A stretch of DNA of 64,000 bases from contig JAFLUC010000001.1 in NCBI GenBank assembly GCA_022509005.1, forward strand, positions 10,521 through 74,520. Direction: 5' to 3'. The position numbers and the translations under genes are program-made. Below the pieces are notes generated by a model, which saw only the letters and a list, made by a program, of their open reading frames with translations, ran no database searches and was not told the DNA's origin. This document shows, piece by piece, positions 31,217 through 49,347 of this stretch (position 1 is its first letter; the number at the start of each line of letters is the position of its first letter). Source of the DNA: Oscillospiraceae bacterium. Lineage in GTDB: Bacteria > Bacillota > Clostridia > UBA1381.

Positions 31217-31228
31217 AACACACTCCTT

Positions 31229-33543: not shown

Positions 33544-34256
33544 TCTCTTCTCCTGCCGCTTGCGTTCATTACAATAAGCAGCAGACGAAGAACCTGAAGC
33601 GCTGTTGCCGCTGCTGAGGCAAAATATGTCAATGCCGCGGCGGTAAGAACCTTTTTCGTTCCGACAAGCTCTTCCTCGTCAAGTATTGCCATGCTATGAA
33701 GCGTTTGTATCGCCCTTGCACTTGCGTTTGTTTCGGTCGGAAGTGTTATAAGCTGGAATGCGAATACTGCACCGTAGAGTATAACTCCGAACATTGCAAG
33801 ACCAAACTGGCTTAATATGATACCCAATAAAATTAAAGGTATCGCCGCATAGCTGCATATATTTACAAATGGAACGATACCGTTTCGCAGTTTTATCGGC
33901 GCATATCCGACCTGATGCTGTACCGCATGCCCGCATTCATGAGCTGCAACACCAAGCGCAGCGATTGATGTCGAATTATAGGTAGCTTCTGAAAGCTTTA
34001 TAAGATTTTCCTTCGGACTGAAATAATCTGTCAGCTTACCCTGTCCTAGTTCTATTCTGACATTATAAAGTCCGTTTGCATCGAGGATTTTCCTCGCGCA
34101 TTCCGCGCCGGTTATTCCGCGGCGCGATGAAATCTTATCATATTTATTAAAAGTACCCTTTACATTTGCTGAAGCAATAAGAGTAATTATAAGACCTAAA
34201 ACTACAAGTAAATAAGTCGGGTCAAAATACATTCCGTAATAATACATACCTGGCAT
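33540..34256 (-). CDS. zinc metallopeptidase (Zn_peptidase_2 family membrane protein)
   Basis: HECGHAVQH HExxH motif flanked by TM helices, 238 aa. Confidence 0.8.
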   Translation of the reverse strand: MPGMYYYGMYFDPTYLLVVLGLIITLIASANVKGTFNKYDKISSRRGITGAECARKILDANGLYNVRIELGQGKLTDYFSPKENLIKLSEATYNSTSIAALGVAAHECGHAVQHQVGYAPIKLRNGIVPFVNICSYAAIPLILLGIILSQFGLAMFGVILYGAVFAFQLITLPTETNASARAIQTLHSMAILDEEELVGTKKVLTAAALTYFASAAATALQVLRLLLIVMNASGRRRD

Positions 34257-34268
34257 AAAGATTCCTCC

Positions 34269-35216
34269 TTAACTGTCTATTGAAATTCCGAGTATCGCAC
34301 CTGTTTCTATCTCGTGTCCTCTTGCATAGTCTTCTGCGTTCATGCGCTTTGCGCCTGCGAACTGCACAGATTTCAGATACAGCGCGCCGCTGCCGCAGGA
34401 AACAAGAAGACCCTTTTTCTTAACTATTCCCAAAATCTCACCGGGGCTGCCTGATGCGTCTGTTTTCTCAGCCTCATAAATTTTCAGGCCGCTGCCCTTG
34501 TACGTAGTCTGTGCCGCAGGAGCAGGATTCATTCCGCAGATAAGCTTTGAAATTTCAGCCGCAGACTTCGTCCAGTCAATCTGAGCCGTCTCTTTGTTAA
34601 TCATCGGCGCATATGTATGCTCGGCATCATTCTGCCTTACATATTCTGCCGTTCCGTCTATAATTTTGCCTATTGTGCTGACAAGCAGACTTCCTCCTAT
34701 TTCGGCAAGTCTTAAAAACAGCTCTCCTGAGGTTTCATACTCACCTATCGGAGTTTCAGCAATACCAATAACATCACCGGTATCAAGACCATAATCCATG
34801 CGCATAATACTTACGCCTGTTTTTGTCTCACCGTTTATTACAGACCACTGTATCGGCGCCGCACCCCTGTATTTCGGGAGCAGCGACGCATGTACGTTAA
34901 TACATCCGTATCTCGGATAGTCTATAATATATCTTGGTAAAAGCTTGCCGTATGCCGCGACAATAATCATATCCGGAGCGAGTGCTTCAAGCTGTTCTTT
35001 AAACGACTCATTTTTCATTGTTTCCGGCTGGAATACAGGAATATCTAACTCCTCTGCCTTCATCTTAACAGCCGTCGGAACAAGCTTATGTCCTCTGCCC
35101 TTGGGCTTATCTGGCTGCGAAACAGCACCTATGATTTCATATTCTGTTTTACTGAGTGTATCAAGCACCGCCGCCGCAAAATCCGGCGTGCCCATGAACA
35201 ATATCTTAATCGACAT
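34269..35216 (-). CDS. fmt: methionyl-tRNA formyltransferase
   Basis: [27 protein letters not shown]. Conserved def-fmt pairing. Confidence 0.95.
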
Positions 35217-35655
35217 ATTTTGTCACCTTCTCCGTGAATACATGCCCTTCAAGATGGTCATATTCATGCAAAAGAGCACGGGCAAGCAGTGCCTCACCCT
35301 CGACTATGAACCATTTTCCGTTTCTGTCCTGAGCCTTTACCTTAGCATAATTCGGACGCGTTACCTCACCGTAAAGTCCGGGAAAGCTGAGGCAGCCCTC
35401 GTTTCCAGTCTGCTCGCCGGAGATTTCAACGATTTCGGGATTTATAAGCTCAATTCTGCCTTCACCTATATCAATAACAACAGCTCTTTTCATGATTCCC
35501 ACCTGAGGAGCGGCAAGTCCCACGCCTTCTGCCTTGTTCATTGTATCATACATATCATCAAGCAGAATCCAAAGCTTTTCATCAAACTTCTTAACTTCTT
35601 TACACTTTTTTCTGAGAATTTCATCATCTCTTAAGCGTATTTCACGTATAGCCAT
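35206..35655 (-). CDS. def: peptide deformylase
   Basis: [18 protein letters not shown] and HEYDHLEG motifs. Confidence 0.95.
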
Positions 35656-35667
35656 TGTAATCCTCCA

Positions 35668-38103
35668 TTAGTATATAGTAATTGGATTTTTATCTATCGA
35701 AACTGTTGTGTTTTCAAAATCCTTATTTTTAGCAACAGCCTCCGCGGCTCTTATAAGCCTGTCGTTTAATAAATCCGCATTTTCACATTTTAATATAATC
35801 TGCCACCTGTAGCGGTTCTTTATTCTGGATACTCCTGACGGAATAGGACCTAAAATCGCCGCCTTTTGTGTTATTTCATGTATATCACCGAACGACTCTT
35901 TAAATAAAAATGCGGCACGCCGTGTTTTGTCGTTATCTGTATCGGTGAGCCTTATACATACCATTTCCGAATACGGCGGATACCACATAGCTCTGCGCTC
36001 GGCTATAGTCTCTAAATAAAAGCTTTTGTAATCATGAGTTTTAACAAGCTTAACGGCAAGATTTTCAGGATCGTATGTCTGAATAACGGCTCTTCCGGGT
36101 TTCTCACCTCTGCCTGCTCTGCCTGATACCTGTTCCAGCGTATCAAAGGTACGCTCACCGCTTCTGAAATCATTTATGTGCAGCATAGTGTCTGCACTCA
36201 TAACGCCTACAAGCGTCACATTTGCAAAATCCAGTCCTTTTGAAACCATCTGCGTTCCTACGAGAATATCTATCTTCTCGTTTGCAAACCGGTCAAGAAT
36301 CTCTTTGTGTGAATTTTTTCTTATGGTCACGTCAGCATCAAGCCTGATCGTAGAAGCATTCGGAAAAAGACGATGAACCTCATCCTCAACTCGCTGAGTT
36401 CCGCCGCCGAAATAGCGTATATACTTACTGCCGCATGCAGGACATTTTGTGTAATTGCACTGCTTATGTCCGCAGTAATGACACTTTAAGCTGTCATCAT
36501 AGCTATGATAAGTAAGCGTTATATTACAGTTCGGGCACATCGGTACAAAGCCGCATTTCCTACACGATACGAATGTAGAAAATCCGCGTCTGTTCATAAA
36601 CAAGATCGATTGCTCGCCATTTTCGAGATTATGCTCTATTGCATTACGAAGCGTTTTTGAAAACATACTCTTATTTCCGTTCTCTAGCTCTACGCGCATA
36701 TCAACAATATCAATATCAGGCATTTTGCCGCGATTATAGCGCTCTTTCATTTCAATCAGTTTGTATTTTTTATCAAGCGCATTTTTATAGCTTTCCAGCG
36801 ATGGAGTTGCCGATGCAAGAATCGTTACCGCTCCGTTTTGCTTAGCTCTGAAAATTGCCGTCTCTCTTGCATGATAGCGCGGACTTATCTCCGATTTATA
36901 CGTTTCAGAATGCTCCTCATCTATGATTATAATGCCTATATTTTTAAGCGGAGCAAATACGGCGCTCCTAGCGCCTATTACTATATCAGCATCGCCGTTC
37001 ATAATTCGTGTCCACTGGTCATAGCGTTCGCCAAGCGAAAGTCCGCTGTGAAATATCGCAATTCTATCACCGAATCTCGAAACAAACCTTGAAACCATCT
37101 GCGGTGTAAGCGAGATTTCAGGTACAAGCATCAACGCAGTTCTGCCCAGCTTTACAGAATGAGCAATAGCCTGCAGAAAAACCTCCGTTTTGCCGCTGCC
37201 CGTTACTCCGTGTAAAAGCATTGTTTCACCGGTTTTATCATCTATTCCGCTGCATATTTCATAAATCGCACCTGCCTGCTCCGATGTAGGCAAAGGCGGC
37301 GCGGTTATTTCCCCCGCGGATTCGTAAGCAGGACGGTCAATATACAGATCGAAGTATTCTGCCATTCCGTTTTTCACGAGCGCAGCAAGCGCTCCGTAGT
37401 TTCCCATCGAAAACCGTACAAGATCGGCAGCGGATAGAAAGTCATTGCTTTTAAGTATAGAAAGCATGCGCTTCTGTATCCCCGAACGCGACTTGGTGAA
37501 GAATTCGTTTACCGTATCCGTATCGGCAATAAGCCTTACAGCGCGGATTTTGCGCTTGTTTATATCGCGCATATGCCGATATTCCTTTTTAAGAACTCCC
37601 TTTTTCTCCATTCGTGATATCAAAGAACGAATATCCTTCTCGAAATATGAGCCGAGCGAATATATATCCATCCCTCCGCCATTATCTTTAAGAAGCTCCA
37701 TAACACGCTCATCGTTTGAGCCCGATCGCGGTTTATATTCTTCATCTGATATTACAATCCATTCAAGCGTTTTTACAGCTGTACCTGTCGGCATCATTGT
37801 ATGGATAATCTCCTGATACGATGCAAGATACCGTGTGCGCATAAACTCAATGAGAGGAACATCCTCCGCAAGAAACGCCGGTTCATCCGATGCAAATCTG
37901 ATTATATTTTTAATTTGTACACTTGCCTCCGTATTGGATTTTGTTCGAAGAACAAAGCCCTCAATCTCCTTGTTCCCTTTTGAAAACGGAACAATAACAC
38001 GGCTTCCCGGCCTGATGCTTTCAGTCAACTCTTCAGGCACAGCATAGTCGAAAACGCGGTCCACCGCGCGGGAGATATGGTTTACTATGACCTCGGCATA
38101 CAT
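35668..38103 (-). CDS. priA: primosomal protein N' (replication restart helicase)
   Basis: 811 aa with GVTGSGKTEV, DEEH, a Cys-rich zinc insertion (CxxC x4) and QVSGRAGR. Confidence 0.95.
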   Translation of the reverse strand: MYAEVIVNHISRAVDRVFDYAVPEELTESIRPGSRVIVPFSKGNKEIEGFVLRTKSNTEASVQIKNIIRFASDEPAFLAEDVPLIEFMRTRYLASYQEIIHTMMPTGTAVKTLEWIVISDEEYKPRSGSNDERVMELLKDNGGGMDIYSLGSYFEKDIRSLISRMEKKGVLKKEYRHMRDINKRKIRAVRLIADTDTVNEFFTKSRSGIQKRMLSILKSNDFLSAADLVRFSMGNYGALAALVKNGMAEYFDLYIDRPAYESAGEITAPPLPTSEQAGAIYEICSGIDDKTGETMLLHGVTGSGKTEVFLQAIAHSVKLGRTALMLVPEISLTPQMVSRFVSRFGDRIAIFHSGLSLGERYDQWTRIMNGDADIVIGARSAVFAPLKNIGIIIIDEEHSETYKSEISPRYHARETAIFRAKQNGAVTILASATPSLESYKNALDKKYKLIEMKERYNRGKMPDIDIVDMRVELENGNKSMFSKTLRNAIEHNLENGEQSILFMNRRGFSTFVSCRKCGFVPMCPNCNITLTYHSYDDSLKCHYCGHKQCNYTKCPACGSKYIRYFGGGTQRVEDEVHRLFPNASTIRLDADVTIRKNSHKEILDRFANEKIDILVGTQMVSKGLDFANVTLVGVMSADTMLHINDFRSGERTFDTLEQVSGRAGRGEKPGRAVIQTYDPENLAVKLVKTHDYKSFYLETIAERRAMWYPPYSEMVCIRLTDTDNDKTRRAAFLFKESFGDIHEITQKAAILGPIPSGVSRIKNRYRWQIILKCENADLLNDRLIRAAEAVAKNKDFENTTVSIDKNPITIY

Positions 38104-38507
38104 CAGAATTCGCCGTCTTTTGCCTCTGTGTGGGTTGCAGCGCTGAGAGCAACGTCAACCGCATTAAGCTCAGCTGCATCATCAAAAGGGTCCGAATCGG
38201 CCTCATCCTTCAGATCGTTCGTCTTTTCCTTTTCAAAATGTGAAATAGCATTGATTTTCTCCTGTTCATAAGCTCTTGCGCGCGCAATAGCCTCTGAGCG
38301 GACGTATCCTATAACGCCTTGGGATATTTCATCTACAGCCTGTGTTACAGGCTTGTTAAGTGTCGTATCGTAGTTCTCAGCATTGTTTTCGTTAGCTTCA
38401 AGACGCTCATTGCCTATCATTCTCGCTCTTTTTGCCACCATAGATACCAATGTGTATCTGCTGTCAACACATCTGTCAAGTTCCGTGATACCCGGTTTAA
38501 TCATCAT
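38103..38507 (-). CDS. rpoZ: DNA-directed RNA polymerase subunit omega with acidic C-terminal extension
   Basis: SRYTLVSMVAKRARMI core. Conserved position between gmk and priA. Confidence 0.8.
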   Translation of the reverse strand: MMIKPGITELDRCVDSRYTLVSMVAKRARMIGNERLEANENNAENYDTTLNKPVTQAVDEISQGVIGYVRSEAIARARAYEQEKINAISHFEKEKTNDLKDEADSDPFDDAAELNAVDVALSAATHTEAKDGEF

Positions 38508-38544
38508 AATATTTTCCTCCTGTTATTCCTTTGGATTGCATATG

Positions 38545-39138
38545 TTATATTATTTCATTTATAAGCTCATCAAGCTTATTTCTTTCTCTGCGTTTGGTGT
38601 TAAAGAAACTGATAACATCCTCAACGCATTGTTCTAAATCATCATTTATAATCTGTGTATTATACTTTTCCGCCTGCTGAAGCTCCCATCTTGCTGCGGA
38701 AATACGTTTTTCAATTTCTGCCTCATCTTCTCGACCCCTTGTTATAAGGCGGTTCTTCAGTTCCTTCATCGACGGTGGAATAAGGAAAATCAATACCGCC
38801 TCAGGTAAGAGCTTTTTGACCTGAAGCGCTCCCTGCGGTTCTATTTCAAGCAGAACATCTTTACCATCATATAAAAGCGACTCCACCGCCTTTTTCGGCG
38901 TACCGTAATAGTTTCCGCTGTACTCGGCATATTCAAGCATTTCTCCGTCGCGGATCATACTGTCGAATTCCACTTTGGAAACATAATGATACGTTTCGCC
39001 CGGAACCTCACCTACACGGCATTCGCGCGTTGTTGCGGAAACCGAAAGAAATACATTATCGCGCTGCAGCAGCTCTTTGCATACCGTTCCCTTGCCTGTT
39101 CCAGAAGGACCGGACAAAACAAATAATATACCTTTCAT
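38545..39138 (-). CDS. gmk: guanylate kinase
   Basis: MKGILFVLSGPSGTGKGT, TTR and YYGT blocks. I place the start at 39138, behind GAGGAGGA and one nt after the remA stop. The track start 39195 overlaps remA. Confidence 0.95.
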   Translation of the reverse strand: MKGILFVLSGPSGTGKGTVCKELLQRDNVFLSVSATTRECRVGEVPGETYHYVSKVEFDSMIRDGEMLEYAEYSGNYYGTPKKAVESLLYDGKDVLLEIEPQGALQVKKLLPEAVLIFLIPPSMKELKNRLITRGREDEAEIEKRISAARWELQQAEKYNTQIINDDLEQCVEDVISFFNTKRRERNKLDELINEII

Positions 39139-39139
39139 A

Positions 39140-39406
39140 TCAATCCTCCTCGGGATATTCATCCGGTTCATATTCGCCGTCAAGCCTTGCAGCAAGCTTT
39201 TCAGGTATTATGGCGGAAAGAATAACATGTCTTGAATCCATAATTACGACAGAACGTGTACGTCTGCCATAGGTCGCGTTAACCAGAAGCCCCCTATCCT
39301 CTGCTTCACGGATAAGACGCTTGATCGGCGCGCTGTCAGGACTTACCACTGAAACAACGCGCGCAGCGGAAATCATGTTTCCGAATCCTAAATTTACTAA
39401 TCTCAT
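39140..39406 (-). CDS. remA: RemA/DUF370-family regulator
   Basis: [32 protein letters not shown]...[12 protein letters not shown] is near-diagnostic of RemA (YlzA). Conserved position upstream of gmk. Confidence 0.85.
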
Positions 39407-39417
39407 ATTTACTCCAT

Positions 39418-40296
39418 CTATTCTATGTTCTGGATTTGCTCCCGCAGCTTCTCAATCTCACCCTTCAGCGCAACAACATGCTTTGCCGTTTCAAGGTCAG
39501 AGGCCTTGGACCCGATCGTGTTCACTTCACGATTTATCTCCTGAATCAGGAAATCAAGCTTCCGCCCTGCCGGCTCGCCGCTGTCCATAATTGCATCAAA
39601 TTCATCATAGTGGCTGGCAAGTCTCACGATCTCCTCATTTACCGCAACCTTATCTGCAAAAATAGCAACTTCTGTAAGTACGCGAGCATCATCGATATCT
39701 CTCCCCTCCAAAAGCTCATTGATCTTTGTGTACAGCTTATCGCGGTATTCCGATACAATTTGAGGCGAGCGTTCGTCAATCTTAACGGCAAGTGAGCGCA
39801 TATATTGAACTCTTGCTCGCAGGTCGGCTTCAATTCTGCCCCCCTCGCGCTCTCGCATTCCTGTAAACGCTGCAATTGCCACATCTGCAACAGTGCTTAC
39901 AGCCTGCCACAGCTCATCCTCGTCATCACGCTTCTGTTCATAACGAAAAATATCTGAAAAAGATGCTATAACCGATGCTGTAATATCATCTTTCAGTCCG
40001 AACTTTTGGCTCAATCCCTTTAAGGCATCAATATAGTTTCCGGCAAGCTCCTCATTGATCATAACGGTCTTATCTGACTCGCCGCATGTTTCAATACTTA
40101 TATAAACGTCAATCTTGCCTCTTGCTACTGCCTTACTTATCGCACTGCGCATTCTCTCTTCAAGAAAGCCGTATTGTCTCGGAGCCTTAATATTATAATC
40201 TGTAAAACGGTGGTTTACTGATTTAATCTCAACAGTTATTTTCTTCTCCCCGATTATAGCCTCGCTTCTGCCATAGCCGGTCATACTTTTTAACAT
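39418..40296 (-). CDS. yicC: YicC/YloC-family protein
   Basis: [13 protein letters not shown]-terminus, a C-terminal [13 protein letters not shown] block, 292 aa. Confidence 0.85.
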
Positions 40297-40408: not shown

Positions 40409-40437
40409 TTGAAAAAAATACAGTTAAATGTTATAAT
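40409..40437 (+). promoter_or_regulatory. sigma-A-type promoter (TTGAAA-17-TATAAT, TGn extended) for the GTPase-NYN/tmcAL operon
   Basis: TTGAAA aaaatacagttaaatgt TATAAT, ending 17 nt before the ATG at 40455. Confidence 0.55.
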
Positions 40438-40454
40438 AGAATTTGGTGATTGTT

Positions 40455-43025
40455 ATGAAAAAATTAGTAATAGGAATACTGGCCCACGTTGACTCCGGCA
40501 AGACCACCCTATCCGAAGGAATGCTCTACCATTCAGGACAGATACGGAAGCTCGGTAGAGTCGACCACGGTGACGCATTTCTTGACACAAACGAAATAGA
40601 ACGAGAAAAAGGAATAACTATATTTTCCAAGCAAGCTGTTCTTAGGTTTAATAATTCCGAATTTACACTACTTGACACCCCGGGACATATTGATTTTTCA
40701 GCCGAAATGGAACGCACGCTCCAAGTACTTGACTATGCAATTCTTGTTATAAGCGGTTCGGAGGGAGTGCAGAACCATACCGAAACGCTGTGGAAGCTTC
40801 TGATACGCTACAACGTACCCGTATTTTTGTTTATAAATAAAATGGATATATCATATCACGAAAAGGACGAGCTTTTATCAGAGCTTCACAAAAAACTCTC
40901 CGACGGCTGTGTGGATTTTACTGATCGTGGCAGCAGTGATTTTGCCGAAGCCTGCGGCACGTGCAGCGAACAGCTTATGGAGGAATTTCTCGAAACAGAA
41001 AATATATCCGACAACTCTATAAGAAAAGCAATTAAGAATCGTGAAATATTCCCCTGTTTCTTCGGTTCAGCGTTAAAGGTAAACGGTGTAAGCGAATTTA
41101 TGGATTCACTGGACTATTATACCGTTATGCCAAAATATAAAAGTGAATTCGGTGCTAAGGTATTTAAAATTGCCGAGGATGACAGCGGCGCGCGTCTTTC
41201 ATATATTAAAATTACCGGCGGTACTCTTAAGGCTAAAGATGTTATCTACGGCAAAGACACACAAGGTAACGAATGGAATGAAAAAGTCGACAGAGTACGA
41301 ATATATAACGGCGAAAAATTTACCACTATAGACGAAGCTTTACCTGGAACGGTGTGCGCCGTAACAGGATTAAGCCGCACCTATGCCGGAGAAGGGCTCG
41401 GGATTGAGAGCAATTCCGAAAATCCGTATCTTGAACCGGTCTTAACCTATAAGGTTGACACGCTCGACGGCACAGATGTGCAGACTGCTCTTTCCAGACT
41501 CCGAATACTTGAATCCGAAGATCCACAGCTCCATGTAATATGGAACGAACAGCTCAGTGAAATACACATCCAGCTTATGGGCGAGGTTCAGCTTGAGGTT
41601 CTGCGCCGGATTATAGGCGAACGCTTCAATATGACGGTAGATTTCGGTCAGGGTTCTATCGCCTATCGCGAAACAATCGCATCAACTGTTGAAGGCGTAG
41701 GTCATTTTGAACCGCTCCGGCACTATTCAGAGGTGCATCTTATTCTTGAACCACTACCGCGCGGCAGCGGACTGAAATTTGAAACAAAATGCAGCGAGGA
41801 CGCTCTTGATAAAAACTGGCAGAGATTAATCCTCACGCACCTGCGTGAAAAGACACATATCGGAGTGCTTACAGGCTCGCCAATAGCTGATATAAAGATA
41901 ACACTTGCTGCAGGCAGAGCACACAAGAAGCATACGGAAGGCGGTGATTTCCGTCAGGCCACATACCGCGCTGTACGCCACGGGCTGATGCATGCCGAAA
42001 ATATTCTTCTCGAACCGTTTTACAGCTTTAGGCTTGAAATACCAACAGAAAATATCGGCCGTGCCATGACAGATTTACAGCAGATGGGAGCAGAATTTTC
42101 ACAGCCGGAGCTTGATGGTGACTTTTCCGTTATTACCGGCAGCGCGCCTGTTTCCCAGATGCGAAGCTATCATGCCGATATTACGGCATATACAGCAGGA
42201 CGCGGAAAGCTTACCTGTATTTTAAAAGGATATGAGGAATGCCGCAACCCGGATGAGGTCATAGCAGAGCGCGGATATGATCCGGAAGCTGACATCGCAA
42301 ATTCTCCCGATTCCGTATTCTGTGCACATGGAGCCGGATTCCTTGTAAAATGGGATGAGGTAACACGCTACATGCATCTTGAAAGTGTGCTGTCACCCGA
42401 AATCAAAGCAGAAAATGCCTCGATTCGCGCATCAAATTTCATTAATGCAGTTGTGGATGATGACGAACTTTTACGTATTTTTGAGCGTACATACGGGCCT
42501 GTAAAGCATGACCGTTATAATGCTGTGCAAAAAAGAACAAAAAAATCGTCACCAATGCCAAAATCAAGAAAGACAACACCTTTACCCGGCGGACCTCTGT
42601 ATATCTTAGTTGACGGATATAATATTATATTTGCATGGGACGGGCTGAAAAAAGCAGCGGAAGAAAGCCTTGACCTTGCGCGAGAGCTTTTAATCGACCG
42701 TATGTGCAACTACTGCGGCTATATGAACTGCGAGCTTATACTTGTATTCGATGCGTATAAAGTAAAAGGAAACCCCGGAAGCGTTGAAAAGGTTCACAAC
42801 ATAAATGTTGTATATACAAAGGAAGCCGAAACAGCTGACGCGTATATAGAAAAGGTAACACATGAACTAGCAAAAAAGCATCGTGTAAGAGTAGCCACCT
42901 CCGATAATCTTGAGCAGATTATAATTCTCGGCAGCGGGGCTATAAGAGTATCGGCAGCCGAATTTGAAAAAGAGGTACTTGATGCCGAAACGCAGATAAG
43001 AAAATTTATAGAGCAGACATTCTGA
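40455..43025 (+). CDS. TetM/EF-G-like translational GTPase fused to a C-terminal Rae1/YacP-type NYN ribonuclease domain
   Basis: N-terminus has G1 AHVDSGKTT, G3 DTPGH and G4 NKMD and is colinear with TetM/EF-G domains II-V over about 650 aa. A Lys/Pro-rich linker follows. From 42594 the protein reads LYILVDGYNIIF...LVFDAY...VVYTKEAETADAYIE...VATSDNLEQ, which matches YacP/Rae1. It is one uninterrupted frame. I prefer the ATG at 40455 to the TTG at 40443. Confidence 0.8.
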   Translation: MKKLVIGILAHVDSGKTTLSEGMLYHSGQIRKLGRVDHGDAFLDTNEIEREKGITIFSKQAVLRFNNSEFTLLDTPGHIDFSAEMERTLQVLDYAILVISGSEGVQNHTETLWKLLIRYNVPVFLFINKMDISYHEKDELLSELHKKLSDGCVDFTDRGSSDFAEACGTCSEQLMEEFLETENISDNSIRKAIKNREIFPCFFGSALKVNGVSEFMDSLDYYTVMPKYKSEFGAKVFKIAEDDSGARLSYIKITGGTLKAKDVIYGKDTQGNEWNEKVDRVRIYNGEKFTTIDEALPGTVCAVTGLSRTYAGEGLGIESNSENPYLEPVLTYKVDTLDGTDVQTALSRLRILESEDPQLHVIWNEQLSEIHIQLMGEVQLEVLRRIIGERFNMTVDFGQGSIAYRETIASTVEGVGHFEPLRHYSEVHLILEPLPRGSGLKFETKCSEDALDKNWQRLILTHLREKTHIGVLTGSPIADIKITLAAGRAHKKHTEGGDFRQATYRAVRHGLMHAENILLEPFYSFRLEIPTENIGRAMTDLQQMGAEFSQPELDGDFSVITGSAPVSQMRSYHADITAYTAGRGKLTCILKGYEECRNPDEVIAERGYDPEADIANSPDSVFCAHGAGFLVKWDEVTRYMHLESVLSPEIKAENASIRASNFINAVVDDDELLRIFERTYGPVKHDRYNAVQKRTKKSSPMPKSRKTTPLPGGPLYILVDGYNIIFAWDGLKKAAEESLDLARELLIDRMCNYCGYMNCELILVFDAYKVKGNPGSVEKVHNINVVYTKEAETADAYIEKVTHELAKKHRVRVATSDNLEQIIILGSGAIRVSAAEFEKEVLDAETQIRKFIEQTF

Positions 43026-43042
43026 AGAAAGGCATGATTATT

Positions 43043-44194
43043 ATGGCGGTAGGAATTATTGCGGAGTTCAATCCGTTTCATAACGGACATAAATACCTCA
43101 TAGAAGAGGCAAAGCACCGTTCAGGCTGCGATTCTGCTGTTGCAGTTATGAGCGGTGAATGGGTCCAGCGCGGCAATATAGCGATCACAGATAAATGGAC
43201 GCGCACTGAACAAGCACTTTTGAACGGAATTGATCTTGTTATTGAATTGCCGGTTATATATTCGATGAATACGGCACAAAAATTTGCATGCGGTGCTGTG
43301 GGAACGCTTACCGCAACAGGCGTAATCGATACACTTGCCTTCGGCTCGGAGTCCGGAGACGCAAATGTGCTCCTTAACGCCGCTGATCTGCTTATAAACG
43401 AGCCTGCTGAGGTTTCGGATAGAATAAAAACGCTCTGTGGTATGGGAATGACATATGCAGCAGCACGTGCGGCAGCATATACCGGTATAATCAACAGTAA
43501 GCTTCTTTCTTCCCCGAATGATATTCTCGCAATTGAATACATACAGGCAATGGAGAAGCTTGGTTCCGATTTTGATATATGCGCAATAAAGCGAAAAGGC
43601 GTAGAACATGACAGCAATGAACACTTCGATAACATAGCCTCCGCTTCCGAAATCCGACGCAGAATATCAGAAAACAGTAATGTATCTGGTTTTCTCCCCT
43701 GCCCTGTTTTCCCTGTGTATTCATCCTCAAGGCTTGATACAGCTCTTATTGCAAAGCTGCGCTGCTGCGGAGCGGAGTATTTAAGAGATATAAACGATGT
43801 TGCTGAGGGACTTGAAAACAGATTTATAAAAGCAGCATCTGAATACGATACCGTAGACGAACTGTGCAAGGCAGTGAAATCAAAGCGATATGCGTTAAGC
43901 CGCATAAGGCGAATTGCATGGTCAGCACTTCTGGGCATAACAAAGGATAAAGCTGCGGCAGCGCCTTCATATATACGCGTACTTGGTATGAATGAAAGAG
44001 GTATGGCGCTTTTGAAGCAGATGAAAACAACAGCGTCACTGCCGGTTATAATAAAACCTGCAGACTATGCCGGAGATGATACATCATTTTTGAGCAGCCT
44101 CGCTGAAGATATTTTCGCACTATGCGCGCACGACAAATCGCTGCGCGGCGGAGGCAGGGATATGACCACATCTCCTGTGATTATGCGCGGATAA
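43043..44194 (+). CDS. tmcAL: tRNA(Met) cytidine acetate ligase (YlbM/DUF795 nucleotidyltransferase)
   Basis: GIIAEFNPFHNGHKYLI HxGH-type N-terminus and colinearity with the TmcAL family. Confidence 0.8.
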   Translation: MAVGIIAEFNPFHNGHKYLIEEAKHRSGCDSAVAVMSGEWVQRGNIAITDKWTRTEQALLNGIDLVIELPVIYSMNTAQKFACGAVGTLTATGVIDTLAFGSESGDANVLLNAADLLINEPAEVSDRIKTLCGMGMTYAAARAAAYTGIINSKLLSSPNDILAIEYIQAMEKLGSDFDICAIKRKGVEHDSNEHFDNIASASEIRRRISENSNVSGFLPCPVFPVYSSSRLDTALIAKLRCCGAEYLRDINDVAEGLENRFIKAASEYDTVDELCKAVKSKRYALSRIRRIAWSALLGITKDKAAAAPSYIRVLGMNERGMALLKQMKTTASLPVIIKPADYAGDDTSFLSSLAEDIFALCAHDKSLRGGGRDMTTSPVIMRG

Positions 44195-44218: not shown

Positions 44219-44261
44219 CACCTGCATAATATAATTAATTAACTAATTATATTGGCAGGTG
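44219..44261 (+). promoter_or_regulatory. imperfect 16-bp hairpin between tmcAL and sigK whose 3' arm contains the sigK SD
   Basis: CACCTGC-a-TAATATAATTA / loop attaac / TAATTATAT-tg-GCAGGTG. The GGCAGGTG in the 3' arm lies 6 nt before the ATG at 44267. Confidence 0.4.
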
Positions 44262-44266
44262 TTCTT

Positions 44267-44947
44267 ATGTTAAGCGCAGTATTTGAATGGTTAAAAGCCG
44301 TCGTATTGATGACCGGTTATGTTTCAGGAAGCGCGTCGTTTCCTAAGCCATTAACCGCAGATGAAGAAGATAAATATTTAAAGTTATTTAACGAAGGAGA
44401 TGAAAACGCCAAAAACGTACTTATAGAACGAAATCTGCGTCTTGTAGCACATATCGCGAAAAAATACAGTGATGACCGAAATGCTGAGGATCTGATCTCA
44501 ATAGGCACAATAGGATTGATCAAAGGGATAAATACATATAAGCTCTCAAAAAATAAAAAGCTTTCATCATATGTTGCAAGGTGTATTGAAAATGAGGTTT
44601 TAATGTATCTGCGTTCGCTGCGCAAGCAGAAGAATGAGGTGTATATGGATGACAGCATAGGAACTGATACTGACGGGAACAGTATGACGCTTTCTGATAT
44701 ACTCCCGAATAACGACCCGGATATAGCGGATACTGTTTCGGACAACATCGATGCTGTCAAACTTCAAAAGGTGCTGTTATCCTGTTTAACGCAGACGGAG
44801 AACGATATCATTTCAGACCGCTATGGACTTGGCGGCAGACCACGTAAAACACAGCAGCAGATCGCCGACCAACTTGGTATAAGCCGCAGCTATGTCAGCC
44901 GTATTGAAAAAAGATGTCTGATAAAGCTTTCAGAGGCATTAAAGTAA
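44267..44947 (+). CDS. sigK: sporulation sigma factor, pro-sigma-K type (uninterrupted)
   Basis: Hydrophobic pro-sequence, then SFPKPLTADEEDKYL...ERNLRLVAHIAKKY, closer to SigK (FPQPLS...RLVAHI) than to SigE. Region 4 HTH ISRSYVSRIEKR. The track start 44252 is a TTG. Confidence 0.7.
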   Translation: MLSAVFEWLKAVVLMTGYVSGSASFPKPLTADEEDKYLKLFNEGDENAKNVLIERNLRLVAHIAKKYSDDRNAEDLISIGTIGLIKGINTYKLSKNKKLSSYVARCIENEVLMYLRSLRKQKNEVYMDDSIGTDTDGNSMTLSDILPNNDPDIADTVSDNIDAVKLQKVLLSCLTQTENDIISDRYGLGGRPRKTQQQIADQLGISRSYVSRIEKRCLIKLSEALK

Positions 44948-44993: not shown

Positions 44994-46871
44994 TTATTCA
45001 ATCGACTCAGAATTACTTACAGTAAAACCTGCAATTTCTCCCGATATCCACATAAATGCCTTAACACTTGCGGCACTGTCGTTAAACCTAACATTACATG
45101 TTCCTTTTCCTGTTACCGCGCTCTTTTTTACGTCAATAAGAATGCCTTCTTTATCATATGCAGCGATATAAATATCCGTCTTAGTATTCTCATCACAGTC
45201 ATAAGCTATTTCAGCACTGCCTATAGCTGCGCTCACAATAGCGACAGTATTCTCTTTCCTCCGCGGATTTCTTGTATCAGAATAGAGCTGAACCGTTGAA
45301 ATTGCTTTTCCGTCAAAGTTAAATAATGTTGTGTTTTCAACCACATTTACCTGGGTATTGTTTCCCTCCTCTGTGATAGCCCAGCCGACAAGATTGTTTC
45401 CGCGCTCGTCCTCAACGTGTATTTTCAGCGGGTCCCAATATAGCACTCCTATGCAATTATCCGCCTGCCTCATATAATTTATAAGCTCTGCCATAAACCC
45501 TTTATGTCCGCTCTCGGTATCAGGATAAATGTCGCGATATGCGTCAATGTTAAACAGCTGTCCATCATAACCATCCTTTTTCTTATCAGTCCAGTTATAG
45601 CCTGCTTCCATTATTATTACCGGTTTATTATATATTTCCGAAAGCTCGTTTACTCGCGATTTACACACCGATGCGGTCTGAGTTGTCCATGACGGATAAT
45701 ATGATATGCCGGTCACATCCCACTTACCTCCCGCTTCTTGATATGCGTCAAACCACCATCTATGGTTTCCGGCATTGGAATATGAAAACCCTCCGTCGCT
45801 TGCAAGATGCACGATGACCTGGGTATCGGGCGATACTGCCTTTATTGCGTCATAGCCACTGTTTAAGAACTGAGCTATGCCTTCAAAATCCGTTTTATAT
45901 GTTATATTGTCTGCGGTCTGCTCATATTCAATTGAATAGGCTGCGGGATTATAAAAGCTGTCATAGCTGCCTCCAAACGGCAGGAATACTCCGCCGTTTA
46001 TCTCGTTTCCGATAGAAACATATTCCGGGGTTGTTCCCTGTTCTGCAAGCTCCTTCATAATTCTTTCGGTATAGTTATATATAAGTTCACTAAGCTTATT
46101 CTTTATCTCTGTTTTCTGCTCCATCGTCATAGTGCTGAGAAATGTATAATCCTCAATATCATATCCGAGGCTGTTCTTTATCTCCAGCACCCAGTCAGAC
46201 GGAATACGCTGACGCTCGCCGTTTGACCAATAATCAGAATAGTTGAACGTGAATACAATCTGCATCCCCGCATCCTTTGCCTCTCTTGCAAGTGCAAGGC
46301 AGTCCTCTTCATTCTGATATCCTGCCGGCAGATAATATGTTCCGTCACCATGTCCCGGACCCGGATCGTTTGAGAGTCTTATACGACATGCGTTCATGCC
46401 ATTTGCGCCTAAGTACTCAATTGGATTTATTTCATTATCGTCAAAGTCATAGTATTTTCCGCCCATATCATGGACAATTGTATACTCCGAAATATCGCCG
46501 CCGTTTAAAAATATAGATTCTTTTGACACTTCTGCCTTTACATTACTGATTTGCGCGATTGAGGTTCCGTCATTATAAAGACCGTATTCAATTGTACCGT
46601 CATTTACATATATACCCTTGATGGTCACGGTCGTTCCGCTTGTTTCAGTCGATTTCGGCAATACTGCAGTTCCTTTTGTAGATGCGTTTGATCTCGCCCA
46701 CATGTAACAGCTTCCGTCAACCGACGAATTGCTGTATTCAGCCGTTACGTCATAATAACCCTCGGCAAGTCCTGTTATTTTACCTGTGTCCTCTGCCGAT
46801 ACAGGTGATGTTATGAACTGAGCTCCCATCATAACAGCAAGCACCGCAGCAGATATATTTTTAAATTTCAC
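44994..46871 (-). CDS. secreted GH53 arabinogalactan endo-beta-1,4-galactanase with N- and C-terminal accessory domains
   Basis: Signal peptide. Catalytic-domain blocks FNYSDYWSNG, VSIGNEINGG, ISYYPSW and VIIMEAGY parallel the GH53 motifs FHYSDFWADP, VGNE, SYYPFW and VAETSY. Confidence 0.75.
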   Translation of the reverse strand: MKFKNISAAVLAVMMGAQFITSPVSAEDTGKITGLAEGYYDVTAEYSNSSVDGSCYMWARSNASTKGTAVLPKSTETSGTTVTIKGIYVNDGTIEYGLYNDGTSIAQISNVKAEVSKESIFLNGGDISEYTIVHDMGGKYYDFDDNEINPIEYLGANGMNACRIRLSNDPGPGHGDGTYYLPAGYQNEEDCLALAREAKDAGMQIVFTFNYSDYWSNGERQRIPSDWVLEIKNSLGYDIEDYTFLSTMTMEQKTEIKNKLSELIYNYTERIMKELAEQGTTPEYVSIGNEINGGVFLPFGGSYDSFYNPAAYSIEYEQTADNITYKTDFEGIAQFLNSGYDAIKAVSPDTQVIVHLASDGGFSYSNAGNHRWWFDAYQEAGGKWDVTGISYYPSWTTQTASVCKSRVNELSEIYNKPVIIMEAGYNWTDKKKDGYDGQLFNIDAYRDIYPDTESGHKGFMAELINYMRQADNCIGVLYWDPLKIHVEDERGNNLVGWAITEEGNNTQVNVVENTTLFNFDGKAISTVQLYSDTRNPRRKENTVAIVSAAIGSAEIAYDCDENTKTDIYIAAYDKEGILIDVKKSAVTGKGTCNVRFNDSAASVKAFMWISGEIAGFTVSNSESIE

Positions 46872-47812: not shown

Positions 47813-47843
47813 AAAAATGGATATCAAAAAAATTTGATATCCA
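47812..47843 (-). terminator. intrinsic terminator overlapping the last codons of the serine recombinase gene
   Basis: TGGATATCAAA-aaaa-TTTGATATCCA perfect 11-bp stem, followed by T6 on the minus strand. Confidence 0.6.
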
Positions 47844-49347
47844 CTTTTCCGTCTGCAATCTCTATAACTTTAATAACCGCTTTTGCTATTTGTTTTTTTA
47901 TTTCCGTATTATAATTATCCCAATCTTTTATGATATTTTCAATATCAAGCTTATCTGCATTTCCGTTTTGTTCTTCAAGCTGTAACCTTGTAATTTCTTC
48001 CAGTATCTCATTTTTCTCTCTATCCAATTCCACAATACGCTGATTGATATACTCAATCGTTATACTGTTTCCTTTAGCAACTGCTGACAGTAGATTTTTT
48101 ATTTCTTCATCTGTTTTTGATAACTCTATTTTCAATTCATTTATTTCGGGTGAATCTTTTACAACACTGCTTTGTTTTATCTCCTTGAGTTCATTTAATC
48201 TTTTAAATAATGCCTCTTTAACTATATTTTCTATTGTTTCGACAGGAACCATTTTTTTAGAATGCGGACATGTTTTATATCTGCGCCCTCTGCAATATAA
48301 ATATCTATATACTGTTTTATTGTTTTTTGATCTTGCTTTATACTTTTTAATATAGTAATTATATCCGCACCCGCATTTCATCAATCCTTGCAGCCACGTT
48401 AAGCTTCCTGTTCCTATGTTTGAGTGTCCTTTTCTTTGTGCAAAAATATTTCTTACAGAAAGCCATACATCAGCGTCAATTATTCCGTCATGTAAACCTA
48501 ATGTTACATAATCATTTTTCAGATTAACAAATTTTGAGCCTTTACGTTTGGACACTTTCCCGTAGACGTAACAACCTTTAACACCCTTATAATCCTCAAT
48601 AGAATTATTCATTGTTGCCCCAATACCCAAAAGATAATTATATATATCAGCATTTGCCTTTACATGAATCGGACTTTTCAACATTCTTGATACAGCATTT
48701 GAACTCCATGGACGGTTTTGCCTTGTCGGTACTTTCTTCTCATTTAATTCACGAGCTATCGCATTCAGACTCATACCATTGAGATAATCTTTATACATTT
48801 TTTCTAATATTCTGCTCTCGTCTTTCTTTATTTTAAATGTATAAGTTTTTTTACCATTTAATTGTGTTTCTATCTTTTCATATCCGAATGGAGCATATCC
48901 TCCTAAATAGAATCCCTTTTCACCTCTGCTATAATAGTTATCTTCTACTCTCTGTTGTATGGTTTCTCGTTCCATTTCTGCAAAAGTCATAAGAATACTA
49001 ACCATTGCTTTTCCTTGAGTAGTTGATGTATCAAACTGCTCATTAACAGACACCAAATCCGTATTATATTTTTCAAATTCTCTTTGCATATTGATAAAAT
49101 CATAAAGCGAACGGCTTATTCTATCGTATTTATAGATGATTATTCTCGATACGTTCCCTTGTTTTACTTCCGTCATCATACGCTGAAACTCAGGTCTGTT
49201 TTTCACTGATTTACCCGAATATCCTTTATCTGAAAATATCTCATATGATTCATTTTTATTTATTTTCTTTTTACATTCCTCTATCTGAGATTCAATACTG
49301 ATACTGTCTTTTTTGTCAACTGACTGTCTTGCATATATTGCTTGCAT
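47824..49347 (-). CDS. large serine recombinase (serine integrase)
   Basis: Resolvase-type catalytic N-terminus (AIYARQSVDKKDSISIESQ, YKYDRISRS), a recombinase domain, a Cys-rich zinc ribbon (CGCG...CRGRRYKTCPH) and a C-terminal coiled coil. 507 aa. Confidence 0.9.
   Translation of the reverse strand: MQAIYARQSVDKKDSISIESQIEECKKKINKNESYEIFSDKGYSGKSVKNRPEFQRMMTEVKQGNVSRIIIYKYDRISRSLYDFINMQREFEKYNTDLVSVNEQFDTSTTQGKAMVSILMTFAEMERETIQQRVEDNYYSRGEKGFYLGGYAPFGYEKIETQLNGKKTYTFKIKKDESRILEKMYKDYLNGMSLNAIARELNEKKVPTRQNRPWSSNAVSRMLKSPIHVKANADIYNYLLGIGATMNNSIEDYKGVKGCYVYGKVSKRKGSKFVNLKNDYVTLGLHDGIIDADVWLSVRNIFAQRKGHSNIGTGSLTWLQGLMKCGCGYNYYIKKYKARSKNNKTVYRYLYCRGRRYKTCPHSKKMVPVETIENIVKEALFKRLNELKEIKQSSVVKDSPEINELKIELSKTDEEIKNLLSAVAKGNSITIEYINQRIVELDREKNEILEEITRLQLEEQNGNADKLDIENIIKDWDNYNTEIKKQIAKAVIKVIEIADGKVDIKFF

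Follow-up and report, generated by a model that had tools for sequence, protein, structure and literature searches.

What would a bacterial protein do that joins, in one reading frame, a ribosome-binding translational GTPase (trGTPase) and an endoribonuclease of the Rae1 type? The question is raised by a gene in a 64,000-nt stretch of an Oscillospiraceae genome (hereafter referred to as the window), in which an uninterrupted plus-strand frame running from ATG 40455 to a stop codon at 43023-43025 encodes a protein of 856 aa, identical in sequence and length to NCBI MCH5211424.1. The gene, its parts and its immediate surroundings comprise the following features.

40409-40437, plus strand: promoter-like site with -35 TTGAAA, 17-nt spacer, extended TG and -10 TATAAT (11/12 consensus matches)
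40445-40449, plus strand: Shine-Dalgarno-like GGTGA, 5 nt upstream of ATG 40455 (read from the sequence)
40455-43025, plus strand: whole gene, translational GTPase and Rae1-type NYN fusion, 856 aa (ORF and profile matches)
40464-41120, plus strand: G domain, residues 4-222 (Pfam GTP_EFTU, E 1.8e-50)
41148-41648, plus strand: domains II and III, residues 232-398 (Pfam EF-G_D2, 232-313, and EFG_III, 327-398, above cut-offs)
41652-41996, plus strand: domain IV, residues 400-514 (Pfam EFG_IV)
42006-42248, plus strand: domain V, residues 518-598 (Pfam EFG_C, E 1.4e-17)
42249-42377, plus strand: family-specific C-terminal module, residues 599-641, helix, beta-hairpin, helix (invariant block; AF2)
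42378-42497, plus strand: fusion-specific spacer and helix pair, residues 642-681 (AF2 helices 655-668 and 670-680)
42498-42602, plus strand: disordered basic Pro-rich tether, residues 682-716 (pLDDT <50 for 685-712)
42603-43022, plus strand: NYN_YacP (Rae1-type) endonuclease domain, residues 717-856 (Pfam PF05991)
43043-44194, plus strand: downstream gene of the TmcAL/YlbM family, PF05636 (Pfam HIGH_NTase1, E 2e-117)

Gene structure and neighbourhood

A preliminary description of this stretch had proposed that a single 856-codon frame fuses two enzymes, and the proposal held: no stop or frameshift separates two genes here, none of 19 full-length fused genes in genome or plasmid records is split, and the best 120 clusters of related proteins, representing many independent assemblies, all have the same fused architecture. 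An assembly artefact is ruled out as the source of the GTPase-NYN fusion. Five apparent stand-alone NYN proteins (short representatives P0152, P0199, P0254, P0216 and P0121) proved on inspection to be 5'-truncated or frameshifted fragments of fusions.

An alternative start codon is present at TTG 40443, and the GGTGA at 40445-40449 supports ATG 40455 as the start, giving the 856 aa of MCH5211424.1. What had been called a consensus promoter survives as a TTGAAA/TATAAT site identified by consensus match only, in a region where promoter-like sites are not enriched over shuffled sequences. The leader that follows this site is only ~11 nt long, which would be too short to hold a leader-peptide attenuator of the tet(M) type.

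The locus is a core chromosomal neighbourhood with no mobile element, and scans with PADLOC (defence systems) and Rfam matched nothing. A cluster with many rRNA-modification genes (rlmN, rsmB) borders the gene, whose neighbours also include yicC and tmcAL. In this lineage sigK also adjoins the fusion gene, an adjacency that is lineage-specific. The downstream TmcAL-family gene, which scores 354.5 against the cut-off of 360 of the NCBIfam TmcAL model (NF010191), begins 17 nt after the fusion gene if translated from ATG 43043, as called in a 92%-identical relative, or 8 nt after it from ATG 43034. No terminator-like site was found on the plus strand between the two genes, and they are probably co-transcribed here. 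The translation-related operon with tmcAL that had been suggested holds for the window and for the 92%-identical relative, which has the same layout, but not more widely: among the more distant related loci, 25 come with 3 kb or more of flanking sequence, and tmcAL adjoins the gene in none of them. A tblastn search of 28 related loci with tmcAL, sigK, yicC, remA, gmk, rpoZ and priA as neighbour queries returned no neighbour match, and the tmcAL operon was rejected as a feature of the family.

Subfamily placement of the GTPase body

All Pfam domain matches in the 856-aa protein exceed their gathering scores. The G domain carries the G1 (AHVDSGKTT), switch I (GITI), G3 (DTPGH), G4 (NKMD) and G5 (GSAL) motifs and is followed by domains II, III, IV and V in that order, the arrangement of an EF2-type five-domain trGTPase; the motifs and domains II-V recognized in the preliminary description are thereby borne out. 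K16, T17, T55, D74, K129 and D131 are kept in all 76 diverse fused homologues compared, H78 in 75 and N128 in 74. In the AF2 model domains II and III form beta-barrel and alpha/beta folds, and the protein as a whole has an EF-G fold (Foldseek E 2e-51). Sequence matches in the PDB are to ribosome-bound EF-G and TetM structures, with EF-G scoring best (258 bits).

The identity of this body as TetM/EF-G, which had been taken for granted, requires revision, since its sequence places it in a distinct subfamily that is neither TetM nor EF-G and that also occurs without a nuclease. The body is about equidistant from both (identity ~29% to TetM and ~29-30% to EF-G). Its best NCBIfam match, tet_protect (NF012153), reaches 412 bits against a cut-off of 775 and also falls below the exception-model cut-offs, while the TetM/W/O/S model NF033148 scores 287 against 1100, and the EF-G models TIGR00484 and PRK12740 score 313 against 659 and 346 against 583, respectively. 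The tip loops of domain IV, His/Lys-rich and strongly conserved, are family-specific, with no counterpart known elsewhere (GHFEPLRHY, residues 416-424, and AHKKHTEGGDFRQATYRA, residues 489-506) and nearly invariant across 82 family members; both are unlike their counterparts in EF-G (RQSGGxGQYG and SYHDVDSSE) and in TetM (PPNPFWAS and LYYSPVSTPADF). Compared with EF-G, the fusion protein has a shorter G' insert, a loop I that is 4 residues shorter and without GGxGQ(Y/F)G, a loop II that departs from the (S/T)(Y/F)HxVDSS pattern, and extra C-terminal modules; the His of the EF-G YHDVD loop aligns with H490.

Tet(M) and Tet(O) have the same five-domain plan, share the short, TetM-sized G' insert, are colinear with the fusion protein over ~600 residues in a single stretch (residues 1-595), and would presumably share its ribosomal binding site. 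In an NJ tree with EF-G as outgroup, TetM is the sister (closest outgroup) of the fused and unfused family; the tree does not separate single from multiple origins of the fusion. Atkinson (2015) placed the fused proteins in the Tet subfamily and speculated that they combine a protection protein with an RNase. Together with tet_protect as the best NCBIfam match, these likenesses favour the reading implied by the NCBI product name, namely a ribosomal protection protein against tetracycline-type or other A-site antibiotics that has acquired an RNase. The finer comparison speaks against that reading. In Tet(M), loop III of domain IV (L505-Y-Y-S508-P509-V510, with S508/P509 conserved) is the functional determinant that dislodges tetracycline, whereas the segment aligned to it (TetM sequence checked against PDB 3J9Y) reads AHKKHT and is invariant in that different form throughout the family. 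Loops I and III and the C-terminal extension of Tet(M)/Tet(O) are entirely unlike those of the fusion protein, in which a different module takes the place of the TetM C-terminal helix, and the fusion gene differs further in being a chromosomal core gene and in carrying a nuclease. The score well below the tet_protect cut-off, an identity to TetM that is the same as to EF-G, the genomic context free of mobile elements, the lack of room for an attenuator and the absence of a PADLOC match likewise count against a protection protein.

The survey of fused and unfused forms called for in the preliminary description locates nuclease-free members of the subfamily in Lactobacillales, Bacillales, Actinobacteria and Peptostreptococcaceae, with examples in Ligilactobacillus salivarius (plasmid pMP118, LSL_RS10690, 644 aa), Bifidobacterium, Coriobacteriaceae, Neobacillus and Intestinibacter. 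These unfused relatives are 42-53% identical to the fusion protein over the GTPase body, have the same domain IV signature loops and C-terminal beta-hairpin module, and end right after the MH motif (H641 of the fusion protein). No NYN match was found within 7 kb of their genes, as would mark a split pair. Because the subfamily also occurs without the nuclease, the GTPase body would have a function of its own, which need not be rescue.

The nuclease domain, its tether and their distribution

The Rae1/YacP NYN domain previously read at the C-terminus is confirmed by profile search, with PF05991 matching residues 717-854 (E 1.3e-47, 162.3 bits against a cut-off of 24.6). This domain is 43% identical to residues 4-139 of B. 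subtilis YacP/Rae1 (PDB 5MQ8/5MQ9, E 4e-25) and contains the motifs LVDGYN, VFDA, ETAD and ATSD, in which D720, D766, D795 and D817 align with Rae1 D7, D53, D81 and D104. What defines the NYN_YacP family is a first Asp followed by GYN, together with no fewer than four catalytic Asp residues (Matelska, 2017). All 76 fused homologues keep both the GYN motif and the four Asp residues, and the catalytic residues of either enzyme vary hardly at all among them. The catalytically dead Rae1 mutant described in the literature is D7N D81N. All comparable residues of the Rae1 specificity region are also conserved in the NYN domain.

Unlike the Rae1 proteins of B. subtilis and C. difficile, the window protein has no C-terminal tail, a region of helices with conserved basic residues: the match covers positions 1-140 of the 166 in the model, and the protein ends two residues on. 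Tail loss was considered as a signature of the fusion and then reduced to a feature of the lineage, since the tail is missing in about half of the fused members and kept in about half; a replacement of the tail by the GTPase would therefore not be general. Rae1 itself is a free protein of ~170 aa, with a tail of ~30 aa, encoded in an rlmB-rae1-sigH cluster, whereas the fusion lies at an unrelated locus.

The segment joining the two enzymes had been described as a Lys/Pro-rich linker, which is accurate for its last 35 residues; the whole segment, however, comprises 118 residues and includes two conserved structured modules. The first (residues 599-641) is common to fused and unfused forms, is matched by no Pfam or NCBIfam model, carries the motif GYxxC..YDxxxD..SVFCAHGAGFxVxW..MH, and is modelled with a pLDDT of ~80 in the full-length protein (65 for residues 599-690 modelled alone). 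The conserved residues C596, C623, H625 and H641 suggest a possible metal site. The second, the fusion-specific helix pair, bears a motif (D.ELLRIFERTYG) conserved in the 76 fused members and is preceded by a spacer that varies from 21 to 143 aa among them. The tether that follows is 32-39 aa long in close relatives, with a median of ~35 aa across diverse members, and is rich in basic residues and proline (K+R 26%, D+E 4%, P 16%). The full-length AF2 model shows no confident contact between modules (pTM 0.50).

A search of the protein library with the linker and NYN domain as query identified 496 clusters (50% identity) at E<=1e-30, the best 150 of which are mostly fusions of 820-1156 aa or fragments of fusions. 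Fused members occur in Oscillospiraceae, Lachnospiraceae, Blautia, Acetatifactor, Pseudobutyrivibrio, Monoglobus and Agathobacter rectalis, and the family is large and conserved in gut Clostridia. Comparison with the 92%-identical orthologue yields a dN/dS of 0.046 for the whole gene and of 0.009 for the NYN domain, and both the GTPase and the NYN halves are under strong purifying selection. No second, free copy of Rae1 was found in the window, and no stand-alone Rae1 in the partial records searched (1.2 Mb of M. pectinilyticus and 0.25 Mb of A. rectalis). The rlmB gene of M. pectinilyticus is followed by unrelated genes rather than by rae1, and neither species has rlmB or sigH ahead of the rpmG-secE-nusG cluster, a place that gives no indication either way on a free rae1. 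The fusion would probably act in place of free Rae1 in these Clostridia.

Proposed role on stalled and collided ribosomes

Rae1 is a ribosome-associated, translation-dependent mRNA endonuclease whose stall-dependent cleavage promotes tmRNA tagging; translated mRNAs are its only experimentally established substrates, and the mapped cut of the free enzyme lies 12 nt upstream of the codon in the leading ribosome's A site. Its earlier designation as an A-site nuclease, adopted in the preliminary description, is one that its own authors have since abandoned: the position now assigned to Rae1 is the tail of stalled ribosomes, and it acts on collided ribosomes, feeding trans-translation (Tetreault, 2026). 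The NYN domain of the fusion protein is accordingly expected, from its likeness to Rae1, to cleave mRNA endonucleolytically on stalled or collided ribosomes and to feed tmRNA.

Given that both halves are real, intact and under purifying selection, the ribosome-delivered NYN nuclease proposed at the outset remains the natural interpretation, although its A-site premise is outdated. We favour, with moderate confidence, a gene product that would be a ribosome-docking GTPase to which a flexible basic tether attaches an mRNA endonuclease of the Rae1 type, and which would serve collision rescue. In its GTP form the body would bind the factor-binding site of a stalled ribosome, or of one that has collided with a stalled ribosome, with domain IV probing the A site or decoding centre. 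Only stalled or collided complexes would last long enough for the nuclease on its tether to reach and cleave the mRNA, which would be exposed at the entry-channel side of the bound ribosome; in a disome, the cut site would be the short stretch of mRNA that links the two ribosomes, just behind the leading one, matching the mapped Rae1 cut. GTP hydrolysis would then free the factor from the ribosome, and the truncated mRNA would turn the ribosomes into tmRNA-SmpB substrates. This would amount to the Rae1 collision-rescue (CART) pathway with recruitment hard-wired through the GTPase. Both the ribosome state recognized and the position of the cut are points that we purely infer.

Functional analogues can be found elsewhere. 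SmrB of E. coli and Cue2 of yeast are collision-dependent endonucleases leading to rescue, an analogy of function only; their SMR fold is unrelated to NYN. Hbs1-Dom34, in which a GTPase delivers an A-site factor in no-go decay, is likewise a functional analogy only, and in none of these systems is a nuclease covalently attached to a translational GTPase.

A more far-reaching version, which we put forward tentatively and regard as rather doubtful, would make the fusion a 'ribosome-docked scissor' gated by GTP and the defining case for the way in which Rae1-type nucleases work. The trailing ribosome of a collision is unable to translocate, and its factor site would be taken by the body, while the 35-residue tether would bring the NYN domain to the inter-ribosome mRNA; the cut would fall where it does for free Rae1, 12 nt upstream of the codon in the leading A site. 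Across much of the gut Clostridia the fusion would have taken over from free Rae1, and the unfused GTPase of other Firmicutes and of Actinobacteria would be a previously unrecognised sensor of stalls or collisions, and perhaps the recruitment partner that free Rae1 is missing.

Among the competing explanations, the one that fares best, though we consider it improbable, is a factor in ribosome biogenesis or turnover, with immature, hibernating or damaged ribosomes as the docking target of its GTPase and rRNA as the substrate of its NYN domain, for instance in 16S 3'-end maturation or the initiation of decay. A parallel is offered by eukaryotic Nob1, a PIN nuclease acting with the GTPase eIF5B. 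A role of YacP in rRNA/tRNA processing was the first to be predicted, from its cysS-mrnC-rlmB neighbourhood (Matelska, 2017), and both the neighbours of the window gene (rlmN, rsmB, yicC and tmcAL) and a basic tether that could bind rRNA would suit such a role. This neighbourhood is not conserved across the family, however, and a domain so close to Rae1, with the comparable specificity-region residues intact, argues for the translated mRNAs that Rae1 is established to cut.

Slightly less probable is a stress-triggered global shut-off of translation, RelE-like in effect, whereby the protein would enter any vacant A site, as in starvation or sporulation, and cut mRNA indiscriminately, with the GTP/GDP level as the switch and no specific recognition of stalls or collisions. 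TetM-type factors do bind ribosomes with an empty A site, the conserved His/Lys-rich loops of domain IV have a composition that would suit contacts with decoding-centre mRNA or rRNA, and the sigK adjacency in this lineage points in the same direction. That adjacency is nevertheless confined to the lineage, the promoter-like site upstream is of the near-consensus sigma-70 (housekeeping) type, and no conserved antitoxin-like partner was found among the related loci; housekeeping quality control is a better match for the very strong purifying selection and for the broad distribution as a core gene.

That the two halves are independent, their fusion being a mere convenience of co-expression for an uncharacterised GTPase and an ordinary Rae1, is unlikely. 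The GTPase does occur alone in several phyla, the Rae1 tail is kept in about half of the fused proteins, and the disordered tether and low-confidence module contacts of the AF2 model are compatible with independence, but most of the 150 top-scoring matches among the 50%-identity clusters retain the fusion, every full-length fused gene examined is intact, and the fusion-specific helix pair and the length of the tether are themselves conserved. Least probable is the antibiotic protection protein with an acquired RNase, for the differences from Tet(M) in loop, C-terminal module and genomic context set out above.

The preliminary description was right that the architecture might already be catalogued and that no functional study existed to its knowledge: the fusion was mentioned by Atkinson (2015) and Matelska (2017), without functional work, and the literature searched yielded no functional study. 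What emerges from the analysis is an uncharacterised trGTPase subfamily with nuclease-bearing and nuclease-free members; the fused family is abundant in dominant human-gut Clostridia (Agathobacter rectalis, Blautia, Oscillospiraceae) and is widely mislabelled as a tetracycline-resistance gene, inflating resistome counts. Rae1 has only just been identified as the nuclease behind tmRNA-mediated rescue of collided ribosomes in Gram-positive bacteria, and the interaction by which it finds and binds the ribosome has been too transient to capture (Tetreault, 2026). A natural fusion that couples the Rae1 domain to a factor whose ribosomal site is well defined gives a Rosetta-stone hint at Rae1's place of action, and, as GTPase factors of this kind can be trapped with non-hydrolysable GTP analogues, it offers a practical handle for cryo-EM.

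Architecture, integrity and distribution of the fusion

The preliminary description had read the fusion gene (40455-43025, forward strand) as a single uninterrupted 856-codon frame joining a translational GTPase to a Rae1-type NYN nuclease, a reading that the analysis bears out. The frame runs from TTG 40443 or ATG 40455 to a stop at 43025 without interruption; the ATG is preceded by GGTGA, and translation from it yields an 856-aa product whose sequence and length match NCBI MCH5211424.1 exactly. Profile search recovered the GTP_EFTU, EF-G and NYN_YacP domains that the description had predicted, all six exceeding their own gathering scores.

Pfam domains of the fusion protein
Residues 4-222, GTP_EFTU
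Residues 232-313, EF-G_D2
Residues 327-398, EFG_III
Residues 400-514, EFG_IV
Residues 518-598, EFG_C
Residues 717-854, NYN_YacP (162 bits, cut-off 24.6)

The NYN part shares 43% identity with residues 4-139 of the B. subtilis YacP/Rae1 crystal-structure sequence (5MQ8/5MQ9), the GTPase body matches ribosome-bound EF-G and TetM chains in sequence, and an AlphaFold2 model of the whole protein (mean pLDDT 76.7) retrieved EF-G structures with Foldseek (E ~2e-51).

Residues 599-856, used as query for a full HMMER scan against 1.84 billion representatives, returned 3097 matches at E ≤ 1e-3, of which 496 reached E ≤ 1e-30. Among the best 150, most were 820-1156-aa fusions or their fragments; a few short matches resembling free NYN proteins were rejected as truncated or frameshifted pieces. 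The identical domain set, at ~850 aa, was present in each of the 120 best clusters at 90% identity, which stem from many independent assemblies, and full-length fused genes were continuous in 19/19 cases (PLSDB records L002 and L003, and 17 GTDB loci). This recurrence across independent assemblies, together with the unsplit genes, excludes a sequencing artefact. Where the host is named, it belongs to the Clostridia: Oscillospiraceae, Lachnospiraceae, Blautia, Acetatifactor, Pseudobutyrivibrio, Clostridiaceae, Monoglobus pectinilyticus, Agathobacter rectalis and Candidatus Ornithomonoglobus. On a contig labelled Barnesiella intestinihominis (CAVJLG010000039.1, locus L028), in a bin assigned to Bacteroidota, a fused gene with 56% identity most likely reflects a mis-binned Clostridia contig rather than transfer.

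Conservation was assessed in 76 fused homologues, including cluster representatives at ≤50% identity. The G1 Lys/Thr, switch-I Thr, G3 Asp, G4 Lys and G4 Asp are present in 76/76, the G3 His in 75 and the G4 Asn in 74; in the nuclease, D720, G721, Y722, N723, D766, D795 and D817 are likewise invariant (76/76). D720, D766, D795 and D817 align with Rae1 D7, D53, D81 and D104, and the published catalytic-dead Rae1 is D7N D81N. Compared with a 92%-identical orthologue, the whole gene has a dN/dS of 0.046 and the NYN domain one of 0.009; high dS makes these ratios approximate, yet they lie clearly far below 1. As far as sequence can tell, both enzymes are alive; the gene is intact and matters to its hosts.

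The 118 residues separating domain V from NYN had been described as a Lys/Pro-rich linker, which holds for the final stretch; an alignment of 42 homologues (≥63% identical) shows that the remainder is more than a simple linker.

Segment between domain V and NYN
Residues 599-641, conserved block (helix, beta-hairpin, helix) with motif SVFCAHGAGFxVxW...MH, pLDDT ~80 in full-length context
After 641 and before the helix pair, weakly conserved spacer
Residues 655-680, helix pair carrying D.ELLRIFERTYG
Residues ~682-716, disordered tether (pLDDT <50), basic and proline-rich (K+R 26%, D+E 4%, P 16%)

Both flanking motifs could be placed in 40 sequences, and in each of these the tether measures 32-39 residues. 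Among the 76 far more diverse fused proteins its median is ~35 aa, and the spacer before the helix pair is the more variable in length (21-143 aa). Residues 599-712 match no Pfam or NCBIfam model. Modelled in isolation, residues 599-690 fall to pLDDT 65, suggesting that the C-terminal module packs onto the GTPase body. Long low-complexity insertions occur in some members, as repeats rich in Gly/Asp/Arg within the G' region or as stretches rich in Ser/Gly/Ala within the post-module spacer; such proteins, for example P0128 (1156 aa) and P0153 (1069 aa), retain all catalytic motifs.

A GTPase subfamily distinct from TetM and EF-G

The body had been called TetM/EF-G-like, which is accurate for its five EF-G-type domains and its chain matches, but it is neither TetM nor EF-G. 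Both identities were rejected: every NCBIfam equivalog or exception model scores far under its cut-off (tet_protect 412 vs 775, TetM/W/O/S 287 vs 1100, EF-G 313 vs 659), and MAFFT identity is 29.2% to TetM (sequence checked against PDB 3J9Y) and 29.8% to a Streptococcus EF-G. By contrast, other fused proteins match the body at 46-65% identity. A set of unfused proteins, 644-741 aa long, reaches 42-53%; these come from Ligilactobacillus salivarius pMP118, a Coriobacteriaceae isolate, Neobacillus cucumis, Bifidobacterium avesanii, Intestinibacter bartlettii and a Clostridiales MAG.

The C-terminal beta-hairpin module, in which conserved C596, C623, H625 and H641 hint at a metal site, is common to both forms, with and without the nuclease. 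They also share two domain IV tip loops, GHFEPLRHY and AHxKHTEGGDFRQATYRA, nearly invariant in 82 sequences; at these positions EF-G has GGxGQ(Y/F)G and (Y/F)HDVDSSE, and TetM has PPNPFWAS and LYYSPVSTPADF. In a neighbour-joining tree without support values the members form a single clade, sister to TetM, and EF-G is the outgroup; this agrees with the family's placement in the "Tet" subfamily (Atkinson, 2015). Unfused members are dispersed within a star-like radiation, so that this tree fits one fusion with several losses and repeated fusion alike.

NCBI product names for the family are inconsistent: entries appear, among others, as [quoted passage not shown], as "NYN domain-containing protein" or as "translation factor GTPase family protein". 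The tetracycline-resistance name is unsupported, since the NCBIfam cut-offs are not reached; the family flags a systematic mis-annotation as "tetracycline resistance protein" that could raise counts in resistome surveys of gut metagenomes.

Gene neighbourhood

The fusion gene is divergent from a conserved Firmicute core cluster, across a 158-nt intergenic region with promoter-like sites on both strands; on its downstream side come a PF05636 (TmcAL/YlbM family) gene and then sigK.

Features around the fusion gene
28453-40296, reverse strand, core cluster prkC (PASTA Ser/Thr kinase)-rlmN-rsmB-fmt-(def)-priA-rpoZ-gmk-remA-yicC, the yicC family being an endoribonuclease
44252-44947, sigK, intact and uninterrupted
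44994-46871, GH53 galactanase
47824-49347, reverse strand, large serine recombinase (Resolvase, Recombinase, Zn_ribbon_recom)

A translation-related operon with tmcAL had been proposed. The layout recurs in the 92%-identical relative, but in A. rectalis, M. pectinilyticus and every other related locus that has flanking sequence, the gene has none of tmcAL, sigK or yicC next to it, which makes the "translation operon" a local accident and no family trait. No mobile-element genes flank the fusion gene; the serine recombinase, ~5 kb downstream of it and ~3 kb beyond sigK, past GH53, may lie at the border of an integrated element. Elsewhere, a 511-aa ORF (54240-55775, reverse strand) has no Pfam match at E ≤ 1e-5, and the 64-kb window contains neither a tRNA gene nor any Rfam family at gathering threshold.

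In L. salivarius pMP118, the unfused gene (L001:5986-7920) adjoins rpsN (ribosomal protein S14) and a "putative metal homeostasis protein" (neighbours at L001:5402-5798), a layout reminiscent of zinc-regulated alternative ribosomal-protein loci. A divergent BrnT-family toxin/CopG-family antitoxin pair lies immediately upstream of the A. rectalis fused gene (L002:5310-5818); since it was found at no other locus, it is probably a coincidence.

Relation to free Rae1 and a proposed mechanism

The architecture is not new, having been noted twice (Atkinson, 2015; Matelska et al., 2017), as the preliminary description had guessed. Among the papers searched in full text none reports a functional study, and recent Rae1 papers leave the GTPase fusion unmentioned; it is a catalogued, functionally unexplored variant of a Rae1-type nuclease and an EF2-type trGTPase. 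The description's premise of Rae1 as an A-site nuclease needs correction, the model having changed in the meantime: tmRNA tagging after induced collisions depends on Rae1 ("CART"), and no ribosome-bound Rae1 structure exists, which is attributed to transient binding (Tetreault, 2026, preprint).

In B. subtilis and C. difficile, free Rae1 occupies its canonical place, with rlmB on one side and sigH on the other. A tblastn search of PLSDB with the NYN domain, covering large chromosome-like records (518, 368 and 335 kb in M. pectinilyticus, 252 kb in A. rectalis), found fused copies only and no free Rae1 in these records. In M. pectinilyticus, unrelated genes come after rlmB, and in neither species does the nusG region show the rlmB-rae1-sigH arrangement. 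These records, part of two genomes, are consistent with the fusion replacing free Rae1. A 2026 census places Rae1 in >87% of Firmicutes; its hmmsearch threshold (E ≤ 1e-10), with no size filter stated for Rae1 in the methods, implies that fusions would have been counted as Rae1.

The general idea of a ribosome-delivered nuclease remains reasonable with both domains intact, once its A-site premise is corrected, and we lean, by a modest measure, towards a GTPase-docked, tethered Rae1 acting on stalled or collided ribosomes, a mechanism built by inference on the facts described here. The GTP-form body would dock at the factor-binding site of such a ribosome, its unusual domain IV tip probing the decoding region, and the basic tether would let the NYN domain sweep adjacent solvent-exposed mRNA; ~35 disordered residues would reach roughly 120 Å at most when fully extended (our estimate), plus the variable spacer. 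In the simplest geometry the cut would fall at the entry-channel side of the bound ribosome and, were this the trailing member of a disome, immediately behind the leading one, at the place where cuts by free Rae1 are seen. GTP hydrolysis would release the factor, and ribosomes on the truncated mRNA would pass to tmRNA-SmpB.

Among the other readings, a factor for rRNA processing or decay is unlikely, though it fares best of these; a nuclease for non-specific stress shut-off is slightly less plausible still, and a fusion reflecting co-expression without mechanistic meaning comes just below it. Antibiotic ribosomal protection is very improbable: Tet(M) loop III (L505-V510, with conserved S508/P509), held responsible for tetracycline dislodgement, is replaced, and this change and the chromosomal context together speak against a role in resistance. 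The main value of the fusion, read as a tethered Rae1, is that of a natural construct which could make the ribosome-binding mode of this rescue nuclease directly testable.
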